Under the pieces are notes generated by a model, which was not told the origin of the DNA, did no database searches, and was given only the letters and a program-made list of their open reading frames with translations. From the NCBI GenBank assembly GCA_000961765.1, contig LADT01000042.1, positions 40,907 through 104,906 on the forward strand: 64,000 nucleotides of DNA. The letters run 5' to 3'. The position numbers and the translations under genes are program-made. Below are positions 34,960 through 63,131 of the stretch, one piece after another (the stretch's first letter is position 1; every line of letters starts with the position of its first letter). Source of the stretch: Clostridiaceae bacterium BRH_c20a. GTDB taxonomy: Bacteria; Bacillota; Peptococcia; Peptococcales; BICA1-8.

Positions 34960-34999
34960 AAAAAGGCCGTTGAAGCAAAACCCTTCAACAGCCTTTTTT
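34960..34999 (-). terminator. Rho-independent terminator after the carbamate kinase gene (A/U tracts on both sides)
   Basis: Minus-strand RNA reads GGCUGUUGAAGGGUUUUGCUUCAACGGCC followed by UUUUU. Confidence 0.7.
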
Positions 35000-35003
35000 A
35001 ATA

Positions 35004-35981: not shown

Positions 35982-36012
35982 TATACTCCCCCTATTTTGT
36001 CTTTATGCAATG

Positions 36013-36210
36013 TTATTTGTTTATTTTATACAGAAGGCCTATTAAAGGGTAAACCATACCCAGACCTAAAAGGATGAAAGCCACAATTAATAATCCTACC
36101 TGCCCCCTTGTCCCTGCTAGATAAAGAAAAGGAAAGGAGAGAAGCACCAAGGTGCTGGCTAAAGTATATTGCCCGAACTGAGTTTTAAGCCATTTTCCCA
36201 TATTACTCAA
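36013..36210 (-). CDS. Small 2-TM membrane protein of unknown function
   Basis: 65 aa with two hydrophobic helices. Tightly spaced after the LctP-like gene, but has no recognisable family. Confidence 0.35.
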   Translation of the reverse strand: MSNMGKWLKTQFGQYTLASTLVLLSFPFLYLAGTRGQVGLLIVAFILLGLGMVYPLIGLLYKINK

Positions 36211-36217
36211 GCCCCTT

Positions 36218-37834: not shown

Positions 37835-37844
37835 CGTTTACCTC

Positions 37845-39284: not shown

Positions 39285-39299
39285 CTTTTGAAACCCCCT

Positions 39300-43869: not shown

Positions 43870-44018
43870 GTCATCCCTCCTTTTGTTAATCATCGGGATT
43901 AAGAGTTAATCCCATAAGCTTGCCTATTATCTAAAATTGTAGCACGACACTAATCCTCAGTCATTGTCAGTGGAATCAATTTTCGCCTTGGTTTGTTGTG
44001 CACATTGTACAAAAGGAA

Positions 44019-44231
44019 GGGGACACACCTGCTGATACTGAGACAGTTTTTTAGCCAGGAATGTCCCCATTAAAGTGAAAAAACCTGCCTCGGCAGGTTT
44101 TTTGGGCAAAAACAGTGAAAGGGGACACACCTCCCTACAGAGTAATACTTTGCGGTCAGAGGAATGTCCCCATTAAAAAGAAAGGGGACGCACCTGCTGA
44201 GACTGAAAGTTTTTTAGCCAGGAATGTCCCC
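44019..44231 (+). repeat. Three same-orientation copies (44019-44068, 44121-44171, 44184-44231) of a ~50-nt hairpin element GGGGACRCACCT-N24-27-AGGAATGTCCCCATTAAA
   Basis: Read directly from the sequence. Copies 1 and 3 are near-identical including the loop, while copy 2 has a different loop. Related copies lie at 58383-58430 and (degenerate) 58176-58208. Confidence 0.85.
44078..44103 (-). terminator. Rho-independent (bidirectional-looking) terminator downstream of the PucR gene
   Basis: AAAAAACCTGCCTCGGCAGGTTTTTT: a perfect GC-rich stem flanked by A and T runs. Confidence 0.75.
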
Positions 44232-44274
44232 ATTAAAATAGTGCTACAGAAAAAAATTAAGTGAAATAGAGGAG

Positions 44275-45948
44275 CTATTCTGTTTCATTGTTTAAAAGCC
44301 CCTTTAGTTTCAAGGCCAACTGCAGTTTGAGTAAAGTATTATAATCATTTAAATCCATATTTAATATTTCTTTAATCTTGTCTAAGCGATAGGTAAAGGT
44401 ATTGCGGTGAATAAACATCTCCTTGGCAGCCTCAGAATAATTAAAATTACAATGAAAATAGGTTTCTAAGGTTTTTACCAGATCCATTTTATTATCTTTG
44501 TCAAAAAGCATTAATTTTTCAATACTTTCATGATAAATTTCTTTAAGCTTAGCTTTATCCAGTGAGTTTAAGAGGTGTTCAACAAAAAAATCTTCAAAAT
44601 AGAGCAGACAATCCTTCTTTTGTTGCATCTTAGCCCCTAATTTGATTGCCTCTACAGCATTAGCATAGCTTTCATGGACCAACAGGGCATTTTTAATGGT
44701 ACCCACTCCGATGGAAACAGTTAACCCACTGATATTTTTATAAATATGAGACTTTATGTCATAGGCTAACTGTTTAGTAATTTCCCGACTTCTCTCCTTT
44801 GGATTGTGTTGCAGGATAATAACTATCTGGTCACTCTGACTAAAGGTTACCGCTTTAAGATTATTATTGGCTAATATTTCATCTACCAGGGCTGAAAGCT
44901 TTCTTTTCAACTTCTGGGCACGGAAATCACTGCCTTCCATTTCTTCCAAATAAATCTTTGTAAAATGGTCTACATCCAAGACCATACAAATATAAAAGGA
45001 ACTTGGATTGATTCCATAAGCGGTACCTCTTCTAGCTAAAATTTCCCGGGATTTTATATTGCCTGATAAATAATCACTAAAAAAGTCTACTTTTAGTCTA
45101 TTGCGCATTTCGGAAAAGGCCGTATTTTTTAACAACTCTAAGCCCACTACGGTAGCTGCATGTTCAATAGCGACAATATCCGGCTCCTCTAGTTCCTCCA
45201 CATTTTGCCAGATGGTAATATGTCCGTACAGTTTCTTTTCGGACATAACCAGATAAATTATCCGCTTAATCTCATGGTCATCAATAAAAATTTTGTCCTC
45301 TAGGTATTTCCTGTTTCCGTTGATAATCTCCTGCATAGTCTGATTATCAATAGGACTTTCAAAAATCAAAAGTTTACTTAAGGGAATTTGTGCTTCAGGA
45401 TGATTATACAAGCTTAAGCTTTTCCAGTTGGCATCAGAAATGGAAATGCTATTATTGACAAAGCTCGACAATAACTCGGCAATCTCATTGAGTCCGCCGC
45501 CCTTTAAAGCCAGTTTGGTAAACCAGTCATGTATTTGGTGGGACCTTTCAATTTTCCTGGCTTGACAGACTAATATTTCTTTCATCATCTCATTCATGAT
45601 TTCTGCAATATTATCTTCAAAGGGGATTTCTATCAAGGGTAAACCTTCCTGATCGGCCAAATCAATCATGTGTTGAGGAATGGTTCTAAAAAACCTTTTC
45701 ACTTTAATGCCTAAACCGGCACATTTTTTTTCGTTTAGATCGAGAATAAGCTGTTTTTGTTCATTAATATCATTACGAATAAAATATCCTGTGGTCACAA
45801 TAAACTGATTTTCCTTGGTCCAGTTAACAAAATCGGGGGCATCCATCTGATTGACCGAGCTGATCATTCTGTCTACGCCTCTGCTTCCGCCTATTACTTT
45901 ACACCCTTTTAATGCTTCCAACTTTAAGGCCTCAGACACCTTGATCAT
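44275..45948 (-). CDS. PucR-family transcriptional regulator
   Basis: 557 aa. N-terminal PucR-type domain, a GGDEF-like middle region, and a C-terminal HTH (YSEAAKEMFIHRNTFTYRLDKIKEIL). Confidence 0.85.
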   Translation of the reverse strand: MIKVSEALKLEALKGCKVIGGSRGVDRMISSVNQMDAPDFVNWTKENQFIVTTGYFIRNDINEQKQLILDLNEKKCAGLGIKVKRFFRTIPQHMIDLADQEGLPLIEIPFEDNIAEIMNEMMKEILVCQARKIERSHQIHDWFTKLALKGGGLNEIAELLSSFVNNSISISDANWKSLSLYNHPEAQIPLSKLLIFESPIDNQTMQEIINGNRKYLEDKIFIDDHEIKRIIYLVMSEKKLYGHITIWQNVEELEEPDIVAIEHAATVVGLELLKNTAFSEMRNRLKVDFFSDYLSGNIKSREILARRGTAYGINPSSFYICMVLDVDHFTKIYLEEMEGSDFRAQKLKRKLSALVDEILANNNLKAVTFSQSDQIVIILQHNPKERSREITKQLAYDIKSHIYKNISGLTVSIGVGTIKNALLVHESYANAVEAIKLGAKMQQKKDCLLYFEDFFVEHLLNSLDKAKLKEIYHESIEKLMLFDKDNKMDLVKTLETYFHCNFNYSEAAKEMFIHRNTFTYRLDKIKEILNMDLNDYNTLLKLQLALKLKGLLNNETE

Positions 45949-45981
45949 TTCTCAAACCCTCCCTAAATCAATCCATTTAAT

Positions 45982-46194
45982 CTAACCTCCGGCGAGAACT
46001 GGAAGGACCTGAATGAAATCATCTTCCTCCAGCTCAAAATCTAAATCATTTACTATTCCAACATTGTTTCTTAATACCAGCACATCATTAAAGGAAACCT
46101 CCAATAAGTCTAATAGTCCCTTTAGGTTCATGGGGCCTTCAATATCTAAATCCTTCCTGTATGGATGCAAAACTTTTATTTTCAGCTGCCTCAC
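45982..46194 (-). CDS. Small MoaD/ThiS-like beta-grasp protein with C-terminal Gly-Gly
   Basis: 70 aa ending ...IQVLPVLAGG, the same C-terminal signature as 6261-6548. Confidence 0.55.
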   Translation of the reverse strand: MRQLKIKVLHPYRKDLDIEGPMNLKGLLDLLEVSFNDVLVLRNNVGIVNDLDFELEEDDFIQVLPVLAGG

Positions 46195-46212
46195 CCCATT
46201 TTTTACTATTAA

Positions 46213-47124
46213 CTATCCCAAATATTTTCTTGCTAAAAAATCCAATCCTAAATAAACGCCAGTCAGAAAGTCCTTACCTGAGGAATGACCAATAACAGCA
46301 ATAACAGGTAAGCAATCCCTGAATTGTTCCAGGTTATCTTGGTTTAAAGCTTTTATAAGCAGGTATATGGGCTGAGAGTAATAGTTTTGAAAAAAGTAAG
46401 CAATAAATTCAAAACTAATTTCCGTAGTAGAGGCTCTAGCCAAATGTAAAATTTCATCTTTTATACTTTCTACTATTCTACTATATTTTTCTTGTACTGT
46501 AAGTATGGTTAAAAAGCCTAACAAAAGATCATCTCCACTGGGTGTCAAGCCTATACCCAAACCCAATAACTGATCTATCCCTTTAATTATGAGGGTTTTA
46601 TCCTGATTTAGAAAGCCCTGCTTAATTTCTTCAGCAGCTGCGGATATTTTTTGCGCTAAAGCCTTCTCAATAGCAGTTAAGGCATTACTCTGGTCCCAAG
46701 CTATCAGAAAATGATAAAGATTTACCGGGCTTTCCCGTAGAAAATCCTTCATAGCCTTTAGATAATCAGAATAACATATGCTGTGTTTTTTTATCTCAAT
46801 TTTAGTTGAAAACTCTTGGGCACCTGCTAGGGAAAATGTATTTTCCCCGATTTGTATGTTTTGGTCCACAAGGCTTAAAACGGCTGTCTCGCCGGGTTTA
46901 AGGGATAAAAGAGTAAAATCATCAATTTCTGGTGAGCATAAACAGCTCATGGGTGTCTTGGCAACTTTTGCATTTTGCAGGGTTAAGAGTGGGCCCATAC
47001 GGGTTTTAATATTACAGGAAGAATTAAAGACCGAATGAACGGCACCAAATAGTCCACTAGAAGAATTCAATAAAAGCTTTGCCATTGGTGAACTTATTTC
47101 TGTAATTGGATAAACTCTGCCCAT
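46213..47124 (-). CDS. DUF2877 (YlbF-like) protein
   Basis: 303 aa. The motif GLGIGLTPSGDDLLLGFL is the signature I associate with DUF2877, the third component of the E. coli fdrA-ylbE-ylbF set. Confidence 0.65.
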   Translation of the reverse strand: MGRVYPITEISSPMAKLLLNSSSGLFGAVHSVFNSSCNIKTRMGPLLTLQNAKVAKTPMSCLCSPEIDDFTLLSLKPGETAVLSLVDQNIQIGENTFSLAGAQEFSTKIEIKKHSICYSDYLKAMKDFLRESPVNLYHFLIAWDQSNALTAIEKALAQKISAAAEEIKQGFLNQDKTLIIKGIDQLLGLGIGLTPSGDDLLLGFLTILTVQEKYSRIVESIKDEILHLARASTTEISFEFIAYFFQNYYSQPIYLLIKALNQDNLEQFRDCLPVIAVIGHSSGKDFLTGVYLGLDFLARKYLG

Positions 47125-47179
47125 AAGCCCTTTCCTCTCATTTAGTTTTAAAAAAAGCGCCTTAAAAGACGCTTTTTTT

Positions 47180-48325
47180 TTAGAAGAACCTTTTTTCTAT
47201 AATCTGGGGACTACGAAAAATATCAGAAGGGTTATTACACCCTAGTAAAGTGAATTGAGCTTTGTTGCCTTCTTGGATGCTAAATCTTTTTACATCAACA
47301 AGGCCCTTGCCGTTTTGGATCAGCATTTGAAAAATATCTGCCTGTTCATCGTCACTATAAAAACGCTGTACATAAGTTAGTAACTGTGCTACTTCAAACA
47401 CATTACCATTACCTAAGGGATTAAATTGGTCCTGTATATTATCAGTACCCAAGCTTACATTAACTCCCGCTAGCAGCAGTTTCTTCACTTCGGTGAGCCG
47501 TCGAGTGGCGATGGCTGTAGGGCAGACAATAACATTAATACCCGCTTTCTTGATGCCTTCAATATCTTTGCTAGCCTCCTCTTCAGAGATAACCGGCAAA
47601 GAACAGCAGTGAATAGCATTTACCCGTCCCTGGTAGCCCTCATTTATAGTCTTTTCGATTAAATAGGGCAGCATATGATCATCAGGTCTACCTGTTTCAT
47701 CTGCATGAAAATCAATGTCCACATCAAAGGCTTTGCCTAGTGCAAAAATAGTATCTATGTGCTCCTTTTTCCTGTCGGCATCCATGCTTGTATGACCGCC
47801 AACGCTGTCAGCACCCATACGTAAGGCTTCTTCAAGGAGCTCTTTAGTTTCCGGGAACCTATTAAAGCCTTCCTGAGAGAAAGCAGTAACGTGGATATCC
47901 ATCATATCCCGGACTTCTGCTTTTAGTTCTAATACAGCCTCAATACCCTTTAAGCCAACCAGAGGGTCCACATCCACATTGGTTCTGATGCCGATCACAC
48001 CGTTTTGTCTAGACATCCTGATAACTTCCCGGGCCCGTTCCTTAATATCCTCTTTGGTAAAGGTTTCTTTTAGCTCCCTGACCCAGCCGGCCCGTACAGG
48101 GGGTGCTTCATCCTGGTACGGTTTTCGTCCAATAATTAAGGATTTATCAATATGGGCATGGGCATTAATTACACCGCTAATCACTATCTTTCCTTGGGCA
48201 TCAAAAACATCACACTGGTTAATGTCAATATTAGCGGCTATCTTTTTGATAATATTATTTTCCACATAAATATCCTGCAGTGTATTACCATCTAGGAGAT
48301 TAGCATTTTTAATAAGCTTGTTCAT
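47180..48325 (-). CDS. Amidohydrolase of the cytosine-deaminase / AtzC (N-isopropylammelide aminohydrolase) / creatinine-deaminase type
   Basis: Start trimmed to MNKLIKNANLL (RBS AGGAGTG). Contains GVINAHAHIDKS, RTNVDVD, VTAFSQEGF, DVDIDFHADE, AIHCCS and SLGTDNIQDQFNPLGNGN. Confidence 0.8.
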   Translation of the reverse strand: MNKLIKNANLLDGNTLQDIYVENNIIKKIAANIDINQCDVFDAQGKIVISGVINAHAHIDKSLIIGRKPYQDEAPPVRAGWVRELKETFTKEDIKERAREVIRMSRQNGVIGIRTNVDVDPLVGLKGIEAVLELKAEVRDMMDIHVTAFSQEGFNRFPETKELLEEALRMGADSVGGHTSMDADRKKEHIDTIFALGKAFDVDIDFHADETGRPDDHMLPYLIEKTINEGYQGRVNAIHCCSLPVISEEEASKDIEGIKKAGINVIVCPTAIATRRLTEVKKLLLAGVNVSLGTDNIQDQFNPLGNGNVFEVAQLLTYVQRFYSDDEQADIFQMLIQNGKGLVDVKRFSIQEGNKAQFTLLGCNNPSDIFRSPQIIEKRFF

Positions 48326-48335
48326 TAAGTCACTC

Positions 48336-49436
48336 CTATTCGGCCTTAACAATAACAGCCAAGAGATTTGCCCCCAGAGGACCTTGGTGCTCGGCTCCTG
48401 CAGAAGCTAAAATCATCGGATCACCGATTAGGGAAGCTACTACAGCATTAGCTACCGCTTTAGCCATAATCCCGGAATAGCCGGCTAAAAAGTCAGTTTT
48501 AATGGTATTTCTCCTGCCTCTGACTGCCCCTACGGAATCAGCCCCGGCGTTAACAAAGATATTAACAACTCTCTGCGCTTCTTCTTTGGAAGGCATACAG
48601 TCAAATTTAAGGCCAGCACTTCTTAAGGCATCTTTAGCTCCTTCTACATCTAGCTGATCCTTCATTACACCGCTGCCCACATAATATTTACTGTTAGATT
48701 TTGAAGAATTACCCATAAGAACTATACGGCAAGCTACCTGTTCGCCACCGGCAGAAGTAGATGCCTTATTTGAATAAAATCCCCAGTTGCTGCAGATATC
48801 TTCCTGCTTTAAAGCTGCAAAGTCAACTTCTCCTAAAGCCACAGCCACACCTAGGGCTGCAGCTCCTTTAGCCAGGCTGCTGGCTTTTCCTAAATCTTCC
48901 GAAACCACGGCTTGGCCCCTGTTTTTAGCATCATTAACCCTAGCGGCAGTCATAGCCGGTAGTTTTACTTCTACACAATGGACATCTTCAACATTATCAA
49001 TACCGGCATCCTGTATTGCCTCTTTAACAGCTTCAGCCACTAATCGCACCTGCTCTAAGGTCCCGTATTCTTCAGGTTTAAGTACCGGTGTGTTGGTAAT
49101 TCCTAAGGCAAAACACTTTTTAGTGTTATCCCCTTTTTCGGCTAGAACCTTCTTGGTAAATACTGTATAATGAGGACTCATAAGACCACCGGTCAAACCG
49201 ATCATCAACATAGGAATTCTATCAAAAACCTCTTGCCTGGTAATTCCCAGTTTTTCAGATAATAGAACCTGAAAAGCCAGAGTGGCATATCCCCTGTCAT
49301 GTCCATCTCCTTCAGTCTGAGCGATAATAGCTGCAATTTCTTCGGGAATAATTTCACCCTGATTAATCATTCTTTCCAACTCAGACACATCACCGGGATG
49401 AGCCATAGGCAATTTGTAAACATTAACATCAAACAT
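48336..49436 (-). CDS. Ring-opening amidohydrolase family protein (cyanuric acid hydrolase AtzD/TrzD / barbiturase family), divergent
   Basis: Start trimmed to MFDVNVYKLP (RBS GGAGGTG). Contains VHCVEVKLPAMT, ASTSAGGE and VRGRRNT, with the C-terminal SAGAEHQGP matching the family signature GGAEHQGP. Confidence 0.8.
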   Translation of the reverse strand: MFDVNVYKLPMAHPGDVSELERMINQGEIIPEEIAAIIAQTEGDGHDRGYATLAFQVLLSEKLGITRQEVFDRIPMLMIGLTGGLMSPHYTVFTKKVLAEKGDNTKKCFALGITNTPVLKPEEYGTLEQVRLVAEAVKEAIQDAGIDNVEDVHCVEVKLPAMTAARVNDAKNRGQAVVSEDLGKASSLAKGAAALGVAVALGEVDFAALKQEDICSNWGFYSNKASTSAGGEQVACRIVLMGNSSKSNSKYYVGSGVMKDQLDVEGAKDALRSAGLKFDCMPSKEEAQRVVNIFVNAGADSVGAVRGRRNTIKTDFLAGYSGIMAKAVANAVVASLIGDPMILASAGAEHQGPLGANLLAVIVKAE

Positions 49437-49575
49437 CAACTGCACCTCCAGAGCTTTTGTTTATATTATTCGTCACAAATATACCATACTACAACCCTTT
49501 GGTCATTGTAATTTATAACCCAAGGAAACCGTAAGCTATTGTGCATCTTGCCCAACTTGGTGCCATTTTAACAAC

Positions 49576-50148
49576 TTATTCTCTGCTGCCAGGTTTATAG
49601 ATGGGTATTCCTTGTTTGCATAAGGGGCAATCATTAGGGTCATAATTATTCATACTTATTGTTACCAAGGAGAAATACGGAACTGTCAGTTTAGCCAAAC
49701 CATTACTACGGTCAACTATAGAGCCTACAGCTAAAACTTCACCTCCCAATCCTTCCACTAAATCAATAACTTCCTGAGAGGAAAGTCCTGTTGTGATGAC
49801 ATCCTCGACCACTAAAACCTTTTGACCAGGTTTAATACTAAACATTCTTCTTAGCTGAGCTTTCCCCTCCACTTTTTCAGTGAAAATACCGGGGACCCCC
49901 AAATAACGAGCAACTTCATAAGCGACTATGATGCCTCCCATGGCAGGGCCAATGACGATATCCGGTTTATCTTGGCAAAAGTGCTCGGCAAGGGTAGTAC
50001 ACACCTTTTCAGATAAATCAGGTTCTTTTAATAGTTGTGCGCACTGTATATACACCTCACTATGTAAGCCGGAACTAAATTTGAAGTGCCCTTCTTTAAA
50101 AGCATCTACCTTTTTCAGCATTTCTAATACTTCATTGGAATCTAACAT
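49576..50148 (-). CDS. pyrE: Orotate phosphoribosyltransferase
   Basis: Start trimmed to MLDSNEVLEMLKK (RBS AGAGGAGA). Contains the PRPP loop VLVVEDVITTGLSS. Confidence 0.85.
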   Translation of the reverse strand: MLDSNEVLEMLKKVDAFKEGHFKFSSGLHSEVYIQCAQLLKEPDLSEKVCTTLAEHFCQDKPDIVIGPAMGGIIVAYEVARYLGVPGIFTEKVEGKAQLRRMFSIKPGQKVLVVEDVITTGLSSQEVIDLVEGLGGEVLAVGSIVDRSNGLAKLTVPYFSLVTISMNNYDPNDCPLCKQGIPIYKPGSRE

Positions 50149-50306: not shown

Positions 50307-51017
50307 TTATATGGTCACCATTTCAGTGACAATGTCCTTGGCGGCCTGGTTAGGATTAATACTTTTCGTTATAGGTCGTCCTACTACAAGATAATCTGCA
50401 CCCATCTTTATTGCTTCCTGGGGTGTGGTAATCCTTTTTTGATCTTCGAGCAAGGTTCCCCGAGGCCGAACCCCCGGACAAACTGTCATAAATTCCTGAC
50501 CACATACTGTTTTTATTTGATTTGCTTCCTGGGGGGAACAAACTACACCATCCAGACCTGACTTTTGACAAAGCTGGGCTAGATTCATTACTGTTTCTGG
50601 GATAGTATATTTATAGCCTACCTGACTAAAGCTCTCTATATCAAAGCTTGTCAATACTGTAACACCGATTATCAAAGGAACCTTAAACCCGTTATTGAGA
50701 GCAGTATTTTTAACTGTTTCCACCGTAGTGGACATCATTACCCCCCCTCCGGAAGCATGAACATTAAACATATCAACACCTAAGCCCGCCGCCCACTTGG
50801 CAGCCTGGGTAACGGTATTGGGAATATCATGAAACTTTAGGTCCAGGAAAATCTTTTTTTCCTTAGTCTTTAAGTAATCTAGAATCTCCCCTCTGGTATT
50901 TAGAAATAATTCCAATCCTACTTTGTAAAAATTTGCTGCATCATCCAAAACATCAATAAGTTCTTTCGCCTTTGCTAGGCTTGGTACATCTAAGGCCACA
51001 ATTAATCTGTTTTCCAT
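50307..51017 (-). CDS. pyrF: Orotidine-5'-phosphate decarboxylase
   Basis: 236 aa. Contains LIVALDV, FLDLKFHDIPNTV and VVGRPI. Confidence 0.9.
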   Translation of the reverse strand: MENRLIVALDVPSLAKAKELIDVLDDAANFYKVGLELFLNTRGEILDYLKTKEKKIFLDLKFHDIPNTVTQAAKWAAGLGVDMFNVHASGGGVMMSTTVETVKNTALNNGFKVPLIIGVTVLTSFDIESFSQVGYKYTIPETVMNLAQLCQKSGLDGVVCSPQEANQIKTVCGQEFMTVCPGVRPRGTLLEDQKRITTPQEAIKMGADYLVVGRPITKSINPNQAAKDIVTEMVTI

Positions 51018-51075
51018 CTTCTCTCTCCTTTCTTTTGCTTAAGGGATATTTTGAATGTCAGTGTGATGACTAATG

Positions 51076-51113
51076 GGTAAGTCTGCACGACAGTGCTACA
51101 GTGCTACAGAAAA
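51076..51113 (-). repeat. 38-bp element TTTTCTGTAGCACTGTAGCACTGTCGTGCAGACTTACC (minus-strand reading); inverted partner of 54651-54688
   Basis: By direct comparison, 34/38 positions are identical to the plus-strand sequence at 54651-54688. Confidence 0.85.
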
Positions 51114-51185
51114 TGACAGGTTAAGGTTTCGCTTCGCTAGGCTGAGGTTAAGAAGAACCATAAGCAAGTCTGGACACTGAGCACT

Positions 51186-51260
51186 AATCACCAGTCACTA
51201 ATAGACCATAGACCATCGACTATAGACTATAGACTTTACTAGTCACCAGTCACCAGTCAC
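51186..51260. repeat. Short tandem repeats: (GACCATA/GACTATA)x5 at 51204-51238 and (AGTCACC)x3 at 51239-51260
   Basis: Read directly from the sequence. They lie immediately downstream of the carB stop. Confidence 0.8.
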
Positions 51261-51264
51261 TTTA

Positions 51265-54200
51265 CTAATACATCTGCAGCGGTTTGACTCTAATCATTGA
51301 TTCTAAAACCTGAACTATAGCCAAAACTAAATCTAGTGAGGTAAGACAGGGCACGTTGAACTCCACTGCCGCTCTCCGGATTCTAAACCCATCCCGGGCT
51401 GGAATTTTCCCTTTAGTCAAGGTATTGAGGACCAAATCTATTTCCCCTTTTTTAATCACATCAACCACATGGGGACTTCCTTCCTTAATTTTGTTCACTT
51501 CCCTGACCTCTAAGCCATGTTTTCGTAAAAGTTGGGCAGTTCCGCTGGTAGCAACTAAATTAAATCCTAAAGCCTTTAACCTTTTTATACTGGGTAAAGC
51601 CTCTTCTTTATCCTTATCAGCAATAGTTACCAGTACATTTCCCCTGCGGGGAATTACATATCCTGCAGCAATAAGAGCTTTATATAGAGCCTTATTAGGA
51701 TCTTTATCAAGTCCTAAAACCTCTCCAGTAGACTTCATTTCCGGACCTAAGGAGGTTTCTACATCGATAAGCTTACTAAAAGAAAACACCGGCATCTTTA
51801 CTGCTACAAGATCTTTAGCCTTAGCAAGTCCCGGGATATAATCTAATTCCCGTATAGTTTTGCCTAAAATAACCTCAGTTGCGATTTCCATCATAGGAAT
51901 TCCTGTTACTTTGCTTAAATATGGAACAGTCCGACTGGAGCGGGGATTGACCTCAATTACATAAACTTCATCTTCATGAATAACATATTGAATATTTAGT
52001 AACCCCTTAATTTTTAAAGCTATGGCCAGCTTTTCTGTCTTTTCTACCAGCTTATTTACTTCTTCTTCCTTTAAGGACATGGGAGGATATACAGCGGTAC
52101 TATCCCCAGAGTGGACACCAGCCCTTTCAATATGCTCCATTATTCCCGGAATCAAAACCTCGCTGCCATCACAGATGGCGTCTATTTCTACTTCCTTCCC
52201 AGTTAAATACCTATCAACCAGCACAGGATGGTCTGGGGAGATTTTAACAGCATTCGCCAAATACTCCTCTAGTTCCTCTAGTGAATAAACTATCTCCATA
52301 GCTCTTCCCCCCAAAACATAGGAGGGTCTGACTAAGACGGGAAAGCCTAATTGTTCTGCAATATTTTTAGCTTCCTTGACATTTCTGGCTGTTTTACCGG
52401 AAGGTCGGACAATGTTTAGCTCTTCTAAAATTGCTTCAAATTTTTCCCGATCTTCAGCCCCATCAATATTTTCCACTTGAGTGCCCAAAATCCTTATCCC
52501 TGCATCATGTAATGGTCTAGCCAGGTTGATGGCAGTCTGGCCGCCAAATTGGACAATTACACCCAGAGGCTTTTCTTTTTCTATAACATTTAACACGTCC
52601 TCTTTTGTTAAGGGTTCAAAATATAGCCTGTCAGATGTGTCAAAGTCTGTACTTACTGTTTCCGGATTGTTATTAATAACAATAGACTCATAGCCGGCAT
52701 TTCTTAGACCCCAGGCACAATGTACTGAGCAGTAGTCAAACTCTATGCCCTGTCCAATCCGGATGGGACCGCTCCCTAATACCACAACCTTTTTGTTGTT
52801 ATTTGTAGGTTCAACCTCATCTTTTTCATTGTAGCTGGAATAATAGTAGGGGGTAACTGCTTCAAATTCTCCTGCACAGGTATCAACCATTCTAAAAACT
52901 GCCCCAAGCTTTAATTGTTTTCTCAGCTCATATACCTCTTGCTCCGAAACACCCCAAGCCTCTGCAATCTGCAAATCACTAAAGCCTAATTCTTTAGCCT
53001 CTTTGAGTTTTTCACTATCAAATTTATTATTGGGCAGTATTGCTTTTTCCCAATTGACCAGCGTCGCAAATTTATTTAAAAAGAAGACATCAACATCTGT
53101 TAGTTTATGAATTTCTTTTATTAAGTAGCCTCTTCTTAAAGCTTCACCAAGGAGGAACAGTCTCTCATCATCAGGGTAAATGAGTCTTTCTTCAAGCTCC
53201 TCTTTACTGATGCTTTGGAATTGGGGATTTAGTAAACCCTTAACATCTAATTCTAAGGAACGGATTCCTTTCTGTAAAGCCATTTCAAAATTACGTCCTA
53301 TAGCCATAATTTCTCCGGTCGCCTTCATTTGTGAACCTAATTTTCTATTGCCTGATTGGAATTTATCAAAAGGCCAGCGGGGTATTTTGACAACTACATA
53401 ATCTAAAGCCGGCTCAAAAGCCGCTAAAGTTTTATCTGTTACACTATTAGGTATTTCATCTAAAAAATATCCTAAAGCAATCTTAGCCGCAATCTTGGCA
53501 ATTGGATAACCGGTTGCCTTAGAAGCAAGAGCACTAGATCTACTGACCCTGGGATTAACCTCTATCACAATATATTCCAGCTTATTAGGATTTAGGGCAA
53601 ACTGAACATTACAGCCTCCTTCAATCCCTAAAGCCCTAATTATTTTTATTGATGCAGTCCGTAATAGTTGATATTCTACATCCGTTAAGGTTTGACTAGG
53701 AGCTACCACAATACTGTCTCCTGTATGCACACCTACAGCATCAATGTTCTCCATATTACAAATAGTAATACAGGTATCATTGGCATCCCGCATTACTTCG
53801 TATTCTATTTCTTTCCAGCCCTTAACACTCTTTTCAATTAAGAGCTGGTTAATTGCACTATATTTTAAGCCTTTAGCTACAATCTCCTTAAGCTCAGCAT
53901 CAGTATGGGCAAAGCCACCCCCGGAGCCACCTAGGGTATAAGCAGGCCGGACAATAAGGGGATAGCCTATTTCCTCAGCCAAAAGTTTAGCTTCTTCATA
54001 ATTATTGGCAATACCACTCTCTGGTACCGGCTCATCTATTTCCTTTAATAAAGCTTTAAACATTTCCCTGTCTTCCGCTTTTCGGATAGCCTCCAAGGGC
54101 GTTCCTAAAAGTCTAACACCTGCTTTTTCCAAAATTCCGCTTTCCGCTAACTCTTGGGCCAGGTTAAGACCCACCTGTCCGCCTAGAGTGGCTAATAGCC

Positions 54201-54453
54201 CTTGAGGTCGTTCCGCATAAATAATTTCTTCTAAAAACTCTTTAGTTAAGGGCTCAATATATACACGGTCAGCCATGTTTTCATCGGTCATTATGGTGGC
54301 AGGATTGCTGTTTACTAATACTACCTCTATTCCTTCGTCCTTTAAGGCTCGGCAGGCCTGGGTACCAGCATAATCGAATTCCGCCGCCTGCCCGATTATT
54401 ATCGGACCAGAACCGATGACCATTACCTTTTTGATATCTTGACGTTTAGGCAT
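51265..54453 (-). CDS. carB: Carbamoyl-phosphate synthase large subunit
   Basis: 1062 aa from [30 protein letters not shown] (RBS GAAAGGAGA). Duplicated ATP-grasp halves and a C-terminal MGS-like domain. Confidence 0.95.
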
Positions 54454-54472
54454 GTGCTTTCTCCTTTCATGC

Positions 54473-54688
54473 TTAAGTGTGTAAGTGTTTAAGTGTTTAA
54501 GTTGAGATGTTGGGTCTGACAATGCTTTGGAGTGGACATTACGCGTCTGACAATACTACTGGGTAAATTTTTTGCGTCTGACAAATACTTTACGGGCATA
54601 CTAGTGCGTCTGACACAGGATTGGTTTGTGCAACATCCGGGTTTTAGTATTTTTCTGTAGCACTGTAGCACTGTCCTGCAGTCTAGCC
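54473..54688 (+). repeat. Repeat-filled carA-carB spacer: (TAAGTGTK)x4 at 54473-54506; four ~31-bp units with core GYGTCTGACA (cores at 54514, 54545, 54576, 54608); 38-bp CTGTAGCAC element at 54651-54688
   Basis: Read directly from the sequence. The spacer is 282 bp, where carA and carB are normally adjacent. Confidence 0.85.
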
Positions 54689-54735
54689 TGTGAGCCGTCA
54701 CACTAACATGCAGTTTATCCTATAAGCCTACACAC

Positions 54736-55812
54736 TTAAGTTTTATTTAGTTTGGCCAGAAATTCTTCAAACAAATATGCCGAATCTTGAGGACCTGGGG
54801 CTGCTTCGGGGTGATACTGTACACTGCCTACCGGCAGTCTTTTATGCCTTAATCCTTCGACCGTGCCATCATTTAGATTAATATGGGTTACTTCTACATC
54901 TTTATTCAGGCTTTCTGAGTCTACAGCAAAGCCATGATTTTGGGAGGTGATATATACCCGACCGGTTTGTAAATCTTTGACTGGATGGTTTCCACCTCGG
55001 TGACCAAATTTTAGTTTATAGGTTTTGCCGCCTAAGGCTAAGCCTAGCAGCTGGTGACCCATGCAAATACCAAACATAGGTATTTTTTGGGGTATTAACC
55101 TTTTAATGGTTTCTACAGCAAAAGCTACATCCTGAGGATCGCCCGGTCCGTTAGAGAGCAAAATCCCATTGGGTTTATGGGCTAATATCTCTTCTGCTTT
55201 TGTATCAGAAGGAACTACTATCACCGTACAGCCCTGTTCCTGTAATTTCCGTATTGAGTTGTTTTTAACACCAAAATCCATTACAACAACCCTTTTAGCC
55301 CCTCCCGGAAGGACATAGCTAAAAGGAGTGCTTACTTCCTTGACCAGCTGCTGTCCCGAGAGGGGTGGTATCCCTTCGGTCATACTTTTGAGCTCTTCTA
55401 TCCCCGTACCATCATTGGCAACTATGCCCGCCATTGTTCCGTGATACCGAAGATGCTTAGTAAGAGTCCGAGTATCTATGCCTTGTATTCCTACTAGTTT
55501 ATGTTCAACCAAAAACGCCTGAAAGCTTTGATTAGCCCGCCAACTACTAGGTTCCTCACAAGCTTCCTTAACTATCACACCCCGCCCGAAAACCTTGCGG
55601 CCTTCCCAGTCGGTAGTATTAGTTCCGTAGTTACCTATTAGGGGATAAGTAAAAGTAATGATTTCCCCAGCATAAGACGGGTCAGTAAGTATCTCTTGAT
55701 AGCCCACCATGCTTGTATTAAATACCACCTCGCCTTGAGTCCTGCCCCTCCAACCCAGGCCTTTTCCAGGGAAAACCGTACCATCTGCTAAGACAAGATA
55801 AGCCTTATTCAT
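54736..55812 (-). CDS. carA: Carbamoyl-phosphate synthase small (glutaminase) subunit
   Basis: Start trimmed to MNKAYLVLADGTVF. Contains the GATase triad Cys in FGICMGHQLL and the HPE tail (VQYHPEA). Confidence 0.95.
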   Translation of the reverse strand: MNKAYLVLADGTVFPGKGLGWRGRTQGEVVFNTSMVGYQEILTDPSYAGEIITFTYPLIGNYGTNTTDWEGRKVFGRGVIVKEACEEPSSWRANQSFQAFLVEHKLVGIQGIDTRTLTKHLRYHGTMAGIVANDGTGIEELKSMTEGIPPLSGQQLVKEVSTPFSYVLPGGAKRVVVMDFGVKNNSIRKLQEQGCTVIVVPSDTKAEEILAHKPNGILLSNGPGDPQDVAFAVETIKRLIPQKIPMFGICMGHQLLGLALGGKTYKLKFGHRGGNHPVKDLQTGRVYITSQNHGFAVDSESLNKDVEVTHINLNDGTVEGLRHKRLPVGSVQYHPEAAPGPQDSAYLFEEFLAKLNKT

Positions 55813-57094
55813 TGACTTCACCCTTTTCCATAACAATTTTTCCAGCTTTTATTGTTAGTATCGGCCACCCGGTAAGTTCCCAATCCTGAAAGGGAGTATT
55901 TTTGCCCAAGGAATAAAATGTTTCTCTTTTTACTTTTTGTGTAAGCTCTGGATCAATTACAGTGATATCAGCATTTTTTCCAGCTTGAACAGTGCCTCTA
56001 TCTATCCCCAATATTTTTGCCGGGGTTGTAGTAAATGTCTTTACCAGATCGAGCATACTAAGATGCCCCGCTAGATAAAGGTTTTGCCAGGCTAAAGGTA
56101 CAGCTGTTTCTAAGCCAGAGATACCATATGGTGCATAATCAAACTCTACATCTTTTTCCTCGCGAGCATGGGGCGCATGGTCAGTTGCAATGCAATCTAT
56201 AGTACCGTCCTGTAAACCCTGGATTAAGGCATAAACATCTTCCTCTGTTCTCAATGGAGGATTAACTTTAGTATTAGTGCAATAACCTTTTACAGCAGCA
56301 TCTGTCAAGGAAAAATGATGGGGTGTAACCTCAGCAGTCACCTTAACTCCTCTTTTTTTAGCGGCACGAATTAATTCTACTCCGCTTTTAGTTGACACAT
56401 GGGCAATATGAATTCGGCCTTTTGTTAGCTCCGCTAAGCGGATGTCCCGGTCGATAATAATATCCTCTACTTCTCTGGGAATACCAGCTAAGCCTAACTG
56501 AGTGCTGATTAACCCTTCATGCATTACGCCGGAGCCAGCTAGCTCCTCATCTTCACAGTGACTAATAATCAATAGATCCAGCATTTTTGCATAATCTAAT
56601 GCTCTACGCATAACACCACTATTCCTTACAGAATGTCCATCCTCAGATAAAGCTATAGCACCACACTCATGTAATATAGCAAACTCGGTCAACTCTTTCC
56701 CTTCCTGACCTTTAGTTATACTTGCTATTGGATAAACCTCTACTAGGTCATACCGCTTTGCTCGAGCTAGGATAAGCTCGATTACTCCTTCTGTGTCAGC
56801 AACCGGATTGGTATTGGGCATACAGGCTATTCCAGTAAAGCCTCCCCGAGCTGCAGCCCGGCAGCCACTTAGAATTGTTTCTTTATGCTCAAAGCCCGGT
56901 TCTCTAAGATGAACATGCATATCAATAAATCCGGGAGCAACTATTTTTTCATTAACATCTATTACCTTGATATCAGGAGAAGCTTTAATATCCTTTCCTA
57001 ACTCCACTACTTTACTATTTGCTATAAGAATATCCATTTTCTCACAGATGTTCTGACTGGGGTCAACCAACAACCCATTCTTAAGCAGTAACAT
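55805..57094 (-). CDS. pyrC: Dihydroorotase
   Basis: Start trimmed to MLLLKNGLLVDP (RBS GGGGGAGG). Contains FIDMHVHLREPG and ATDHAPH. Overlaps both the pyrB stop and the carA start. Confidence 0.9.
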   Translation of the reverse strand: MLLLKNGLLVDPSQNICEKMDILIANSKVVELGKDIKASPDIKVIDVNEKIVAPGFIDMHVHLREPGFEHKETILSGCRAAARGGFTGIACMPNTNPVADTEGVIELILARAKRYDLVEVYPIASITKGQEGKELTEFAILHECGAIALSEDGHSVRNSGVMRRALDYAKMLDLLIISHCEDEELAGSGVMHEGLISTQLGLAGIPREVEDIIIDRDIRLAELTKGRIHIAHVSTKSGVELIRAAKKRGVKVTAEVTPHHFSLTDAAVKGYCTNTKVNPPLRTEEDVYALIQGLQDGTIDCIATDHAPHAREEKDVEFDYAPYGISGLETAVPLAWQNLYLAGHLSMLDLVKTFTTTPAKILGIDRGTVQAGKNADITVIDPELTQKVKRETFYSLGKNTPFQDWELTGWPILTIKAGKIVMEKGEVNE

Positions 57095-58016
57095 TAAATT
57101 TACCTCCCCCCATGGCATATAATAACGCCATTCGTATTGCTACACCATTGGTCACCTGCTCTTCTATTACTGATTGAGAGGACTCAGCAACCTCAGCAGT
57201 TATTTCAATTCCCCGATTCATGGGACCGGGATGCATAACCAAAGCATTATCCTGGGCAAGCTTCAGCTTTTCTTGATTAAGTCCATAAAGCTTTGCGTAC
57301 TCTCTAGTGGAAGGAAACAGCCCTTTCTTCTGCCTTTCCAGTTGAATCCTAAGCACCATTACTACATCTGCTCCCTCTAGAGCTTTTTTCATATCCCAGG
57401 TAACCTTTACTCCCAGCTTTTCCACCTGTGCGGGTAAAAGGGTTGGTGGTGCACAAACCCAGACATCAGCACCAAAGGCATTTAAACCCAATATATTTGA
57501 ACGGGCAACCCTACTGTGCAAAACATCCCCAATTATAGCAATTTTTTTTCCGCTAAGTGTACCTAGGTGACCTAGCATAGTAAACATGTCCAAGAGTGCC
57601 TGTGTAGGATGCTCATGGGTTCCATCACCGGCATTGATCACTCGAGCGTTTATGGCTTTAGCCAAGATATGGTGGGCACCACTGGCAGGATGGCGCATTA
57701 TAACTACATCAGCTCCCATCCTCTCAATGGTTTTAGCTGTATCCCGCAGACTTTCACCCTTAGCGACACTTGAAGTGCCGGCACTGATATTAATTACATC
57801 GGCACCCATGTATTTGCCTGCTAGTTCAAAGGAGCTTCGAGTCCGAGTACTATTTTCATAAAAAAGATTAATGATTGCCTTTCCCCTAAGGGTAGGTACC
57901 TTTTTAATTTCCCGGTGAATAATTTCTTTCATGGATTTTGCATTAATGAATATTTCCTTCATTTCTTCAACAGATAAATCAGATAAGCTTATGAGGTCTT
58001 TACTTTTAATTCCCAT
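57081..58016 (-). CDS. pyrB: Aspartate carbamoyltransferase catalytic subunit
   Basis: 311 aa. Contains ENSTRTRSSFE, HEHPTQALLD and HPGPMNRG. Confidence 0.95.
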   Translation of the reverse strand: MGIKSKDLISLSDLSVEEMKEIFINAKSMKEIIHREIKKVPTLRGKAIINLFYENSTRTRSSFELAGKYMGADVINISAGTSSVAKGESLRDTAKTIERMGADVVIMRHPASGAHHILAKAINARVINAGDGTHEHPTQALLDMFTMLGHLGTLSGKKIAIIGDVLHSRVARSNILGLNAFGADVWVCAPPTLLPAQVEKLGVKVTWDMKKALEGADVVMVLRIQLERQKKGLFPSTREYAKLYGLNQEKLKLAQDNALVMHPGPMNRGIEITAEVAESSQSVIEEQVTNGVAIRMALLYAMGGGKFNVTA

Positions 58017-58084: not shown

Positions 58085-58211
58085 ATAATTAGTCTATGGT
58101 CTTCTTTTATCATGTGGTCTAGTGATTGTTATTAGTAACTAGTTTTTGGTAAAACACTAAAATATATTATGGATCGGGGGAACACCTCTTCACTTTGAGG
58201 AATTCCCCTAA

Positions 58212-58359
58212 TTAATAAAGCCGGGTCAGAGGACCCGGCAGGTAGACTAGTTATACTACAGCCAGCTTTACAGTAAAAACTGTAGTACTGTAGCACTGTA
58301 GCACTGCTAGAACTGAGCTACAGTTTCTCCTTGCCGGACTCTCAGGACCGATTTAAAGG
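58212..58359 (-). promoter_or_regulatory. PyrR-type transcription attenuator 1 (binding loop + terminator), proximal to pyrB
   Basis: Minus-strand RNA reads CCUUUAAAUCGGUCCUGAGAGUCCGGCAAGG, against the B. subtilis PyrR loop consensus UUUAA..RUCCAGAGAGGYU..AAGG. It is followed by the terminator GCCGGGUCCUCUGACCCGGC-UUUAUU. Confidence 0.7.
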
Positions 58360-58382
58360 GAATAATATTCAATTATATGCAC

Positions 58383-58430
58383 GGGGACACACCTCTTTTA
58401 TGGTTTATCATTGGGATGAGGAATGTCCCC
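58383..58430 (+). repeat. Copy of the GGGGACAC...GGAATGTCCCC hairpin element between the two attenuators
   Basis: GGGGACACACCT-N24-AGGAATGTCCCC, with the same termini as the 44019-44231 copies. Confidence 0.8.
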
Positions 58431-58460
58431 AAATAATTATGGGCGCGATAAACTTTATAT

Positions 58461-58610
58461 TAATAAAGCCGGGTCTTAAAAGACCCGGCAGGTAGACTAA
58501 TTATACTACAGTCAGCTTTACAGTAAAAACTGTAGAACTGTAGAACTGTAGAACTGCTAGAACTAACTACAGATTCTTCCTTGCCAGCCTCACAGGACCG
58601 AACTTAAAGG
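58461..58610 (-). promoter_or_regulatory. PyrR-type transcription attenuator 2 (distal; first after the promoter)
   Basis: Minus-strand RNA reads CCUUUAAGUUCGGUCCUGUGAGGCUGGCAAGG, followed by the terminator GCCGGGUCUUUUAAGACCCGGC-UUUAUU. By eye it is about 85-90% identical to attenuator 1. Confidence 0.7.
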
Positions 58611-58627
58611 ACTATTTATTTTTATTA

Positions 58628-58713: not shown

Positions 58714-58963
58714 GAGTGACATATACTACAGGGTGAACATTATTGGGCTGACATTCTTCTGGGCGAATATTACGCGTCTGACATATACTTTTGGGTGATC
58801 ATTATGGGTCTGACATACTCCTACGCCATATTTTGCGTCTGACACAACCATTAACAGATATTCTATCAGATGCTAAACTAAACCCTTAAGCTATTGTCAG
58901 ACGCGAAAGACTGTCCCCATAGCAATGTCAGACCCATAAGTTAAACCCCTTAGTCTATCAGAC
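58714..58963. repeat. Head-to-head array of ~31-bp units with core G(C/G)GTCTGACA: five direct units (cores 58714, 58746, 58776, 58808, 58837) facing three inverted units (TGTCAGAC at 58895, 58926; TATCAGAC at 58956)
   Basis: Read directly from the sequence. The unit is the same as in the carA-carB spacer. Confidence 0.85.
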
Positions 58964-62974: not shown

Positions 62975-63131
62975 CATCGTGACATCGTGTCGCCGTGTCA
63001 TCGATTAAAAGGCATCTGCTATTGGGTTGAGATATTGGGATGCATCTCATGCAAGTGGAGATTACTGGATGCATCTGCTTAAAGGTCTAGCTTAAGGGAT
63101 GCATCAAAAAGATTGGCATTCATCTGATGCC
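62975..63131 (+). repeat. Tandem octamers (CATCGTGA-CATCGTGT-CGCCGTGT-CATCGATT, 62975-63006), then a ~30-bp-period array with core GG(G)ATGCATCT (GCATC at 63012, 63042, 63071, 63101, and CATCT at 63121)
   Basis: Read directly from the sequence. It lies between the riboswitch promoter region and the stop of the M20D gene. Confidence 0.8.

Follow-up and report, generated by a model that had tools for sequence, protein, structure and literature searches.

Probable displacement of pyrK-pyrD from the pyr operon of Clostridiaceae bacterium BRH_c20a

The pyr operon of Clostridiaceae bacterium BRH_c20a, a metagenome-assembled genome (MAG) that represents a new genus and was recovered from porewater of the Opalinus Clay, is located in a 64-kb window, the whole stretch of DNA analysed here, and lacks the dihydroorotate dehydrogenase (DHOD) genes pyrK and pyrD between carB and pyrF. 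We conclude, with a probability of about 0.85, that pyrK-pyrD was displaced and not lost: an old rearrangement and a large insertion separated it from the operon, the repeat-filled spacer between carB and pyrF expanded later, and the divergent DHOD-like pair within the window is a catabolic paralog. The rearrangement, the insertion and the window boundary together thus produce an apparently missing DHOD. On this conclusion the pathway lacks no essential step, and BRH_c20a need not be considered a candidate auxotroph; the case also illustrates how a gene can seem to be missing because the window analysed has fixed ends.

Organization of the pyr operon

Gene identities were assigned from Pfam and NCBIfam profile matches. 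The pyr genes are all on the minus strand, in the order pyrB-pyrC-carA-carB, a 247-bp spacer, and pyrF-pyrE:

57081-58016, minus strand: pyrB, aspartate carbamoyltransferase (Pfam OTCace_N and OTCace)
55805-57118, minus strand: pyrC, dihydroorotase (Pfam Amidohydro_1 and DHOase)
54736-55836, minus strand: carA, carbamoyl-phosphate synthase small chain (Pfam CPSase_sm_chain and GATase)
51265-54453, minus strand: carB, carbamoyl-phosphate synthase large chain, 1062 aa (Pfam CPSase_L domains)
50307-51017, minus strand: pyrF, orotidine monophosphate decarboxylase (Pfam OMPdecase)
49576-50148, minus strand: pyrE, orotate phosphoribosyltransferase, 190 aa (Pfam Pribosyltran and gene call)

The start of carB is the ATG at 54453 and not the listed TTG at 54522, as indicated by an AAAGGAG ribosome-binding site (RBS) and by the gene prediction for a metagenome contig of identical sequence. 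This is not the Bacillus-type order carB-pyrK-pyrD-pyrF. A preliminary description of this DNA had noted that pyrK-pyrD is absent from the carB-pyrF junction, and the Pfam-based order agrees: carB is followed by the non-coding, repeat-rich spacer and then by pyrF. The order it took as canonical, pyrB-pyrC-carA-carB-pyrK-pyrD-pyrF-pyrE, is found exactly in Desulfonispora but is not universal, as carB is directly followed by pyrF in about 60 Paenibacillus loci and in several Clostridia. No DHOD-like gene is found within 10 kb of the Paenibacillus loci, and the window resembles these carB-pyrF operons with an unlinked DHOD in its order pyrB-pyrC-carA-carB-pyrF(-pyrE). With the Bacillus subtilis-type operon (pyrR-pyrP-pyrB-pyrC-carA(pyrAA)-carB(pyrAB)-pyrK-pyrD-pyrF-pyrE), the window shares the same biosynthetic genes on one strand, PyrR-type attenuators in the leader and internal carAB. 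Different from that operon, it lacks pyrK-pyrD at the carB-pyrF junction, has neither pyrR nor pyrP in the leader, and carries two back-to-back attenuators upstream of pyrB and long repeat-filled spacers flanking carB.

A canonical PyrK/PyrD pair beyond the left end of the window

Two features occupy the left end of the window:

977-1879, minus strand: EamA-family transporter, the far border of the inserted block described below (Pfam EamA; tblastn against the relative L171)
1-890, minus strand: 5' part of a PucR-family regulator gene, running off the window (translation)

A canonical pyrK right after the EamA gene inside the window was considered and rejected, as the reading frame there is that of the PucR regulator. 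The sequence beyond position 1 was found by matching the EamA protein to public assemblies, which gave the contigs L173, L174 and L175 from Mont Terri and other subsurface metagenomes. These are 100% identical, without gaps, to window positions 1-11879 (two contigs) or 1-5541 (one), and continue about 9 kb past the left end. The extension encodes, in order, PucR, an M20 carbamoylase, a second dihydroorotase, PyrK2, PyrD2, a TRZ/ATZ-type amidohydrolase, YdjM, a DUF1540 protein and a HisKA histidine kinase. PyrK2-PyrD2 is located at 15268-16966 of L173, which corresponds to the following positions:

3,389-4,183 bp beyond position 1: PyrK2, 264 aa (metagenome contigs)
4,176-5,087 bp beyond position 1: PyrD2, 303 aa (metagenome contigs)

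The pair is about 53 kb downstream of pyrE and 3.4 kb outside the window, and a DHOD identical to PyrD2 has been deposited under the name Clostridiaceae bacterium BRH_c20a. By score, substrate residues and orthology, it is a canonical class-1B PyrK/PyrD. Specifically, PyrD2 reaches 448.7 bits on NF005574 (cut-off 269) and carries the motifs ETPAGMLNSVGLQNPG and SLINT; its residues N69, N75 and T193 are invariant in its 120 closest homologs (120/120). It is 72% identical to the PyrD of Thermanaerosceptrum, 53% to the operon PyrD of Desulfonispora, and 52% to the PyrD of Lactococcus lactis DHODB, relative to which every substrate residue is kept. The neighbouring second dihydroorotase scores 457 bits on TIGR00857, and its stop overlaps the pyrK2 start. 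The M20 hydantoinase/carbamoylase-family amidase of the extension (L173 12716-13966) scores 435.9 bits on NF006771, the N-carbamoyl-amino-acid amidohydrolase family.

The preliminary description had allowed for a class-2 pyrD elsewhere in the genome; another pyrD does exist, within the pair 3.4-5.1 kb beyond the left end, but belongs to class 1B. It had also stated that a canonical pair elsewhere, with normal biosynthetic regulation, would contradict its view. The pair was found, but no PyrR attenuator is recognisable before pyrK2-pyrD2, which apparently lies outside the attenuation control of the pyr operon. We infer that the biosynthetic conversion of dihydroorotate to orotate is most likely carried out by PyrK2/PyrD2.

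Origin of the arrangement

We then compared the locus with its relatives, which include L003 (JASKKI01, the nearest GTDB genome, CarB 84%), L171 (JGI contig SAHD_10002058) and L170 (MAG GCA_049323895.1). The best match in a PyrF scan of genome contigs was 75%, and a scan of metagenome contigs contributed L090 and L091, both short, as its only informative relatives. Desulfonispora thiosulfatigenes (PyrF 61% identical) has pyrB-pyrC-carA-carB-pyrK-pyrD-pyrF-pyrE with 0-1-bp junctions around pyrK-pyrD. Thermanaerosceptrum fracticalcis (complete genome, CP045798.1) has carA-carB-(88 bp)-pyrF-pyrE-PucR-DHOase-pyrK-pyrD-DctPQM, where DHOase is dihydroorotase. The contigs L003 and L177, which belong to one genome and are identical over 3.3 kb, read carB-(24 bp)-pyrF-pyrE-nif island-PucR-DHOase-pyrK-pyrD-DctPQM-YdjM. 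L171 has carB-(363 bp)-pyrF-pyrE-EamA-pyrK-pyrD-YdjM; immediately downstream of its pyrE is the EamA ortholog (70-84% identity to the window's, by tblastn), and its PyrD is 92% identical to PyrD2. GCA_049323895.1 has the layout of the window on one 345-kb contig, and is syntenic over the block that separates pyrE from EamA:

1880-49575, minus strand: N-heterocycle and amino-acid catabolic block, 47,696 bp, between pyrE and EamA (Pfam, NCBIfam)

Identities of 92%, 88% and 70% to PyrD2, and of 84% and 69% to the second dihydroorotase, speak for orthology of the displaced modules. The Thermanaerosceptrum arrangement pyrE-PucR-DHOase-pyrK-pyrD-DctPQM is the uninterrupted form of that in BRH_c20a. 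Unlike in Thermanaerosceptrum, 47.7 kb and EamA precede the PucR module here, an M20 carbamoylase is added, and a TRZ/ATZ amidohydrolase replaces the TRAP genes.

The simplest account of the rearrangement has three steps. An ancestral carB-pyrK-pyrD-pyrF-pyrE would have given carB-pyrF-pyrE together with PucR-dihydroorotase2-pyrK-pyrD, with pyrK-pyrD and pyrF-pyrE swapping places. Different islands would then have been inserted between pyrE and the PucR-DHOase-pyrK-pyrD module. In BRH_c20a, the insert comprises 47,696 bp (1880-49575), plus EamA, PucR and the M20 carbamoylase.

Several points weigh against displacement as set out here. PyrK2 is just under the NCBIfam PyrK cut-offs (251.6 versus 314; 206.3 versus 219). 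PyrK2/PyrD2 apparently shares an operon with the genes for the carbamoylase and the second dihydroorotase, after PucR and without a PyrR attenuator. The extension consists of metagenome contigs; three independent assemblies agree, and a chimeric join beyond the 11.9-kb overlap is formally possible. As the search covered the window and the contig extension, a further DHOD of class 1A or class 2 is possible elsewhere. The direction of the rearrangement comes from a handful of genomes compared without a formal phylogeny, and PyrF identities (L003 75% versus L170 69%) are discordant with the ranking by CarB and PyrD.

Aside from these points, the nif cluster of L003 (8481-17888) and L177 (1-6200) is complete and contains nifH, two P-II genes, nifDKEN, a radical-SAM NifB, an AnfO-like gene and a homocitrate synthase gene. 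It occupies the pyrE/PucR junction that holds the catabolic island in BRH_c20a, which suggests a recurrent insertion site.

A possible orotate-utilisation module around PyrK2/PyrD2

The neighbours of PyrK2/PyrD2 raise a possibility that is compatible with displacement, although we consider it doubtful: the pair may belong to a PucR-controlled module for orotate/carbamoyl-aspartate utilisation, and serve catabolism or salvage as well as de novo synthesis. The classical orotate fermentation of Clostridium oroticum (Lieberman and Kornberg) proceeds from orotate via dihydroorotate and carbamoyl-aspartate to aspartate, using an NADH-linked DHOD, dihydroorotase and ureidosuccinase. In gene content, the M20 carbamoylase, dihydroorotase and PyrK/PyrD outside the window equal these three steps; different from the C. 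oroticum route, the pair here probably also serves biosynthesis. The PucR-DHOase-pyrK-pyrD module is conserved in Thermanaerosceptrum, L177, GCA_049323895.1 and BRH_c20a, and is followed by DctPQM in two of them. The preceding M20 gene, the overlap of the DHOase stop with the pyrK start and the absence of a PyrR attenuator point in the same direction, and no other canonical DHOD was seen beside the pyr operon in the genomes compared. On the other side, pyrK-pyrD of L171 has neither PucR nor DHOase beside it, the second dihydroorotase next to pyrKD could be a plain biosynthetic paralog, the module as a whole could be the biosynthetic step under another kind of control, and the proposal is built on gene context. 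A search of the accessible literature for an assigned orotate-catabolism gene cluster found nothing relevant, and no genes assigned to the C. oroticum route, so the module has no precedent there. If the proposal is true, the PucR-linked module would be a gene set for the classical orotate fermentation/utilisation pathway. The transfer of the biosynthetic pair from an attenuator-controlled operon to a regulator/hydrolase/transporter module could offer a way into the genetics of orotate catabolism or salvage in anaerobes.

The carB-pyrF spacer

The spacer is exactly 247 bp long (51018-51264), between the carB stop codon (51265-51267) and the pyrF ATG (51015-51017). Tandem Repeats Finder detected three arrays, ACAGTGCT in 2.5 copies (51090-51109), ATAGACT in 5 copies (51201-51235) and AGTCACC in 2.9 copies (51241-51260). 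In transcript order, the spacer is composed of (GTGACTG)x3, (GTCTATA/G)x5, a core of about 100 nt in common with L091, a repeat arm (51083-51113), a proximal element of about 45 nt and the pyrF RBS. The proximal element (TCACACTGACA..., 51030-51070; …TCACACTGACAnTnAGAATAnCC…AAAGGAG) is kept in all four long-spacer relatives. A promoter with CTGACA as -35 box was considered in this element and rejected, as a conserved -10 box is absent across the four relatives. The spacer contains no open reading frame longer than 35 aa, and the short ones have no support. Its RNA fold is no more stable than those of shuffled sequences (z=-0.45), and it has zero terminator-like sites in a terminator scan and zero Rfam matches.

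Comparison with relatives dates and characterizes the spacer. The L091 spacer is homologous to that of the window with differing repeat copy numbers (more GTGACTR, fewer GTCTATA and one extra CTGTAGCA-like unit), the pattern expected from replication slippage. The similarity of its non-repeat core to that of the window is about the same as for the carB 3' end, and higher than for pyrF. Apart from the last ~45 nt, the spacers of L170 and L171 do not align with that of the window; they are filled with other repeats. Long carB-pyrF junctions occur only in the subclade formed by the window, L091, L170 and L171, with lengths of 247, 258, 289 and 363 bp (363 bp being that of L171). The genomes of rearranged order outside this subclade have short junctions, 24 bp in L003 and 88 bp in Thermanaerosceptrum; hence the long spacer is younger than the rearrangement, and the rearrangement left no long scar. 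The comparison shows the 247-bp spacer to be a later, subclade-specific non-coding expansion, built from 7-8-nt tandem repeats prone to slippage and from scattered repeat fragments.

The carA-carB junction has a spacer of similar build:

54454-54735, minus strand: carA-carB spacer, 282 bp, with four TGTCAGAC units at 31-32 bp spacing, ACACTTAA-type tandem octamers and a repeat arm at 54651-54681

The two genes are 282 bp apart in the window, 217 bp apart in L171, and 34 bp and 31 bp apart in L170 and L003, respectively; in Thermanaerosceptrum they overlap. This junction was never a pyrKD site, and is expanded like the carB-pyrF junction with the same repeat types. A 31-nt inverted repeat built around CTGTAGCA units brackets carB (54651-54681 and 51083-51113, 30 of 31 positions matching). 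A second, shorter inverted pair is located outside the first (54698-54708 and 51056-51066; TCACACTGACA and TCACACTAACA), and L171 has an equivalent carB-bracketing pair. The inverted pairs hint at long-range RNA pairing or at a dispersed repeat family, both arms being present in two genomes only.

These repeats bear on whether the spacer is functional, as an mRNA processing or stability element or as a protein-binding array for separate control of pyrF-pyrE, for example by pairing of the arms that bracket carB. We regard such a function as rather unlikely. It would fit the 30/31 inverted repeat around carB, the second pair and the equivalent pair in L171, the proximal ~45 nt kept in four relatives whose PyrF is only 66-69% identical to that of the window, and the TGTCAGAC arrays at 31-32 bp spacing in the adjoining spacer and upstream of the promoter. 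The fold stability at the level of shuffled sequences and the zero Rfam or terminator matches speak against it, as does L170, which keeps the proximal element but has a carA-carB junction of 34 bp, so that the bracketing pair is not universal. L003 and Thermanaerosceptrum have no such spacer at all, and two genomes with both arms are too few for covariation.

The preliminary description had further proposed that the spacer is the physical scar of an excision of pyrK-pyrD between carB and pyrF. The spacer is at the exact site of pyrK-pyrD in Desulfonispora, and there are four genomes with long junctions; this much of the proposal is sound. The rest is improbable in view of the 24- and 88-bp junctions of the rearranged-order genomes and the non-homologous spacer bodies of L170 and L171, which differ from that of the window even among close relatives. 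Moreover, no remnant is detectable: BLASTX and BLASTN of the spacer against the canonical pyrK/pyrD of four relatives and the in-window pair gave noise only (BLASTX all E>3), leaving no pyrK/pyrD similarity in DNA or protein. The carA-carB junction, never a pyrKD site, expanded alike.

DNA identity between the window and L091 (50307-51650) is about 90% in the carB 3' end, about 75-80% in the non-repeat spacer and about 55-70% across most of pyrF. The drop at the carB-pyrF junction and the discordant PyrF ranking suggest recombination or accelerated divergence starting there.

The DHOD-like pair within the window

The window contains a second pair of DHOD-like genes:

26967-27788, minus strand: PyrK-like electron-transfer subunit (Pfam DHODB_Fe-S_bind, PF10418, and FAD_binding_6, PF00970)
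26063-26974, minus strand: PyrD-like catalytic subunit, 303 aa (PF01180; divergent DHOD-1B-like clade)

The PyrD-like ATG at 26974 overlaps the PyrK-like stop. In tblastn with canonical PyrK/PyrD, 26063-27788 is the only match in the window. The pair is flanked by an AOR gene (28120-30021) on one side and a DctPQM TRAP system (22971-25952) on the other, in the G+C-richest part of the window (44-49% versus about 35-43% elsewhere); downstream are genes for a DHOase/hydantoinase-like amidohydrolase, an Asp/Glu-racemase-superfamily protein and an M20 N-carbamoyl-amino-acid amidohydrolase. The tblastn search, the G+C content and the loop alignment below bear out the preliminary description of these genes as the sole DHOD-like genes in the window, with a divergent loop and in a GC-rich block between TRAP and AOR genes.

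The two subunits differ in how well they match their families. The PyrD-like protein passes the cut-offs, with 207.9 bits on PF01180, 338 on NF005574 (cut-off 269) and 298 on TIGR01037 (cut-off 270). The PyrK-like protein is below all NCBIfam PyrK cut-offs (127, 123 and 115 bits versus 314, 219 and 270) and 36% identical to the canonical PyrK2; it has the FAD-binding domain, and its C-terminal [2Fe-2S] Cys cluster aligns to 5KSW_B. The PyrD-like protein is 49% identical to PyrD2 and 53-58% to proteobacterial members of its clade.

We then inspected the substrate pocket. The substrate loop of the PyrD-like protein is VLSAVGIPSKG, versus the canonical MLN(A/S)(I/V)GLQNPG. Aligned to 1DOR (L. lactis DHODA), it has Ser at the positions of Asn67 and Asn73, and thus lacks both the Asn67 that binds the orotate ring and the second Asn of the GLxNPG loop. 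It keeps the catalytic Cys130, the carboxylate Lys, Asn127, Asn132 and Asn193 (ELNLSCPNV, FVPKT, SMINS). Among its 120 closest homologs, the Asn67 position is Ser or Thr in 111 and the Asn73 position is replaced in all 120 (by C, S or A); the Thr after Asn193 is replaced by A, G or S, with a new Pro-Arg pair there. In class-1A Trypanosoma cruzi dihydroorotate dehydrogenase, Asn67, which has the same residue number as in 1DOR, makes the strongest interaction with orotate by hydrogen bonds to N1-H and C2=O (PMC4427443). Compared with L. lactis DHODB (PyrDB/PyrK; PDB 1EP1-3, 5KSW, 5UE9), both pairs of BRH_c20a share the FMN TIM-barrel and FAD/[2Fe-2S] subunits, the overlapping genes and the catalytic Cys. 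Relative to its L. lactis counterpart, the in-window PyrD-like protein shows 41% identity, carries Ser in place of both Asn of MLNAIGLQNPG, and has INSPRA instead of INTLMG.

The homologs of the PyrD-like protein fall into three tiers of uncultured Firmicutes (83-99%, 70-72% and 59-63%), followed by Pusillimonas, Castellaniella, Roseivivax and Rhizobiales (53-58%). In the Proteobacteria, the pair neighbours a GntR regulator, an M20 peptidase, an asparaginase, an amidohydrolase, a transporter and an XDH-like molybdoenzyme. An RF00515 scan of 18000-36500 at E<=1 found no PyrR element near the in-window pair, which is associated with neither pyr genes nor a PyrR attenuator. From context and residues, the pair is most likely a catabolic paralog of a separate clade with an altered substrate pocket, which reduces an orotate-like cyclic ureide or N-heterocyclic carboxylate. 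The proposed route would begin with TRAP uptake and continue with ring reduction by the DHOD-like pair, ring opening by the DHOase/hydantoinase-like enzyme and M20 decarbamoylation. As the clade is automatically annotated "dihydroorotate dehydrogenase" without a key orotate contact, this label is likely a systematic mis-annotation across Firmicutes and Proteobacteria.

Dearomatising reductases of the PF01180 type act in anaerobic uric-acid and uracil degradation (PMC12507026; PMC7332683). Like the systems of PydA/PydAc and of UacX from the reductive uric-acid pathway, the window combines a PF01180 enzyme with two kinds of cyclic amidohydrolase, SsnA/TRZ-ATZ-like and hydantoinase/DHOase-like, and further with a pterin-dependent oxidoreductase, carbamate kinase and an M20 ureido-hydrolase. 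Unlike PydA, the in-window enzyme has class-1B DHODs as its closest kin, and its electron partner is PyrK-like instead of ferredoxin domains. The pterin enzyme is of the AOR family here and XDH-like in Proteobacteria. The in-window cluster was also considered as a variant of the reductive uric-acid cluster; this was rejected, as the amidohydrolase is below the SsnA cut-off and the YgeX/YgeW set is absent.

Class-1B DHODs are reversible NAD-linked enzymes, for example that of Clostridium oroticum. The idea of the preliminary description that the biosynthetic DHOD was lost and that the catabolic pair runs in both directions to supply orotate for uridine monophosphate would agree with this reversibility, with the PyrD-like score above the NCBIfam DHOD equivalog cut-off (338 versus 269) and with the retained catalytic Cys, carboxylate Lys and three Asn, but is unnecessary and very improbable: its premise fails with the canonical pair in the same genome, Asn67 is Ser in the window and Ser/Thr in 111 of the 120 closest homologs, the clade occurs in proteobacterial catabolic clusters, the PyrR site is absent, and the PyrK-like protein is far below the PyrK cut-offs. 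A joint interpretation of the two pairs can be advanced only tentatively. In a group of anaerobic Clostridia (Thermanaerosceptrum, BRH_c20a and relatives), the only canonical DHOD would be detached from the PyrR-controlled operon and wired into a PucR orotate module with a second dihydroorotase, a transporter and, in BRH_c20a, an N-carbamoyl-amino-acid amidohydrolase. This enzyme would be bidirectional, as the preliminary description supposed for the other pair, and the clade with Asn67 changed to Ser/Thr and the new Pro-Arg motif would be a new reductive dearomatase for an N-heterocyclic carboxylate, working with a W/Mo-pterin enzyme.

Two observations concern relatives of the in-window pair. 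The metagenome contigs L088/L089 (genes 5543-13211) carry a DHOD-like subgroup that retains the Asn67 equivalent, in a cluster of PucR, a class-III aminotransferase, PyrK, PyrD, dihydroorotase and a carbamoyltransferase resembling aspartate and ornithine carbamoyltransferases (ATCase/OTCase-like). This cluster looks like pyrimidine biosynthesis reversed, with phosphorolytic release of carbamoyl phosphate. In the 331-bp gap between the AOR and PyrK-like genes (27789-28119), a syntenic MAG (L083) has a gene for a 393-aa M20 peptidase, which seems to have been lost in the window or reduced to a remnant.

The pyr leader and dispersed repeats

The leader upstream of pyrB is 1 kb long and contains a promoter-like site, TTGTCA-17-TATAAT, at 58656-58628. 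Two attenuators follow:

58211-58614, minus strand: pyr leader with two tandem PyrR-type attenuators, 58459-58614 and 58211-58363 (Rfam RF00515, relaxed threshold)

Both are full-length RF00515 alignments (positions 1-115) with the loop motif …UCCUUUAA…GGUCCnGnGAGGC… followed by a terminator, upstream of pyr genes. Each ends in a G+C hairpin and a U-tract, and the terminator scan found terminator-like hairpins at 58489-58468 and 58239-58220. The scores of 49.7 and 43.4 bits (E=1e-4 and 2e-3) are below the gathering score of 54, because a CTACAG-repeat segment is inserted in the attenuators; at gathering thresholds, Rfam gave zero matches in the whole window, and the PyrR elements surface at relaxed thresholds only. 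The same double attenuator is present in L003. The CAGTGCTACAG units of the carB-bracketing repeat also form part of the second attenuator (58280-58306).

Other repeats are shared between the leader and distant sites. REP-like hairpins of the form "AATGGGGACATTCCT…AGGTGTGTCCCCTT" occur in 3 copies between PucR and allF (43894-44274), in 2 copies in the pyr leader (58383-58431 and ~58170-58215), and also in the leader of L003. The octamer TGTCAGAC has 9 copies in the window versus 0.72 expected, all in two arrays with 29-32 bp spacing: four copies in the carA-carB spacer (54514-54615), and five just upstream of the pyr promoter (58776-58933), three on one strand and two on the other. These arrays look like protein-binding sites or a dispersed repeat. 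Upstream of a P-type ATPase gene (63039-63105), another sequence, GATGCATC, occurs in three copies 29-30 bp apart, and an array of the same motif fills the carB-pyrF spacer of GCA_049323895.1 (L170, 9712-10000). In this lineage, periodic octamer arrays thus move from one intergenic site to another.

The catabolic block between pyrE and EamA

The 47.7-kb block contains genes for an AtzD-like protein, AllH, PucR, two AllF/AllG sets, carbamate kinase, TRAP systems, three AOR proteins, amidohydrolases, M20 carbamoylases, OrtAB and others. Its part downstream of pyrE (35004-49445) encodes a ring-opening amidohydrolase of the AtzD/TrzD family (the barbiturase/cyanuric-acid-hydrolase family), a cytosine-deaminase-like amidohydrolase, AllH and a ThiS-like small protein, as well as PucR, two AllF/AllG pairs (oxamate carbamoyltransferase subunits), a lactate-permease-family transporter and carbamate kinase. 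These genes possibly constitute an ATP-yielding ureide pathway. The three AOR-family (tungsten/molybdenum-pterin) genes (6538-12515; 28120-30021) are located among amidohydrolases and M20 hydrolases within 64 kb, and two of the three have adjacent 4Fe-4S ferredoxins. In Proteobacteria, the place of AOR beside the DHOD-like pair is taken by the XDH-like molybdoenzyme.

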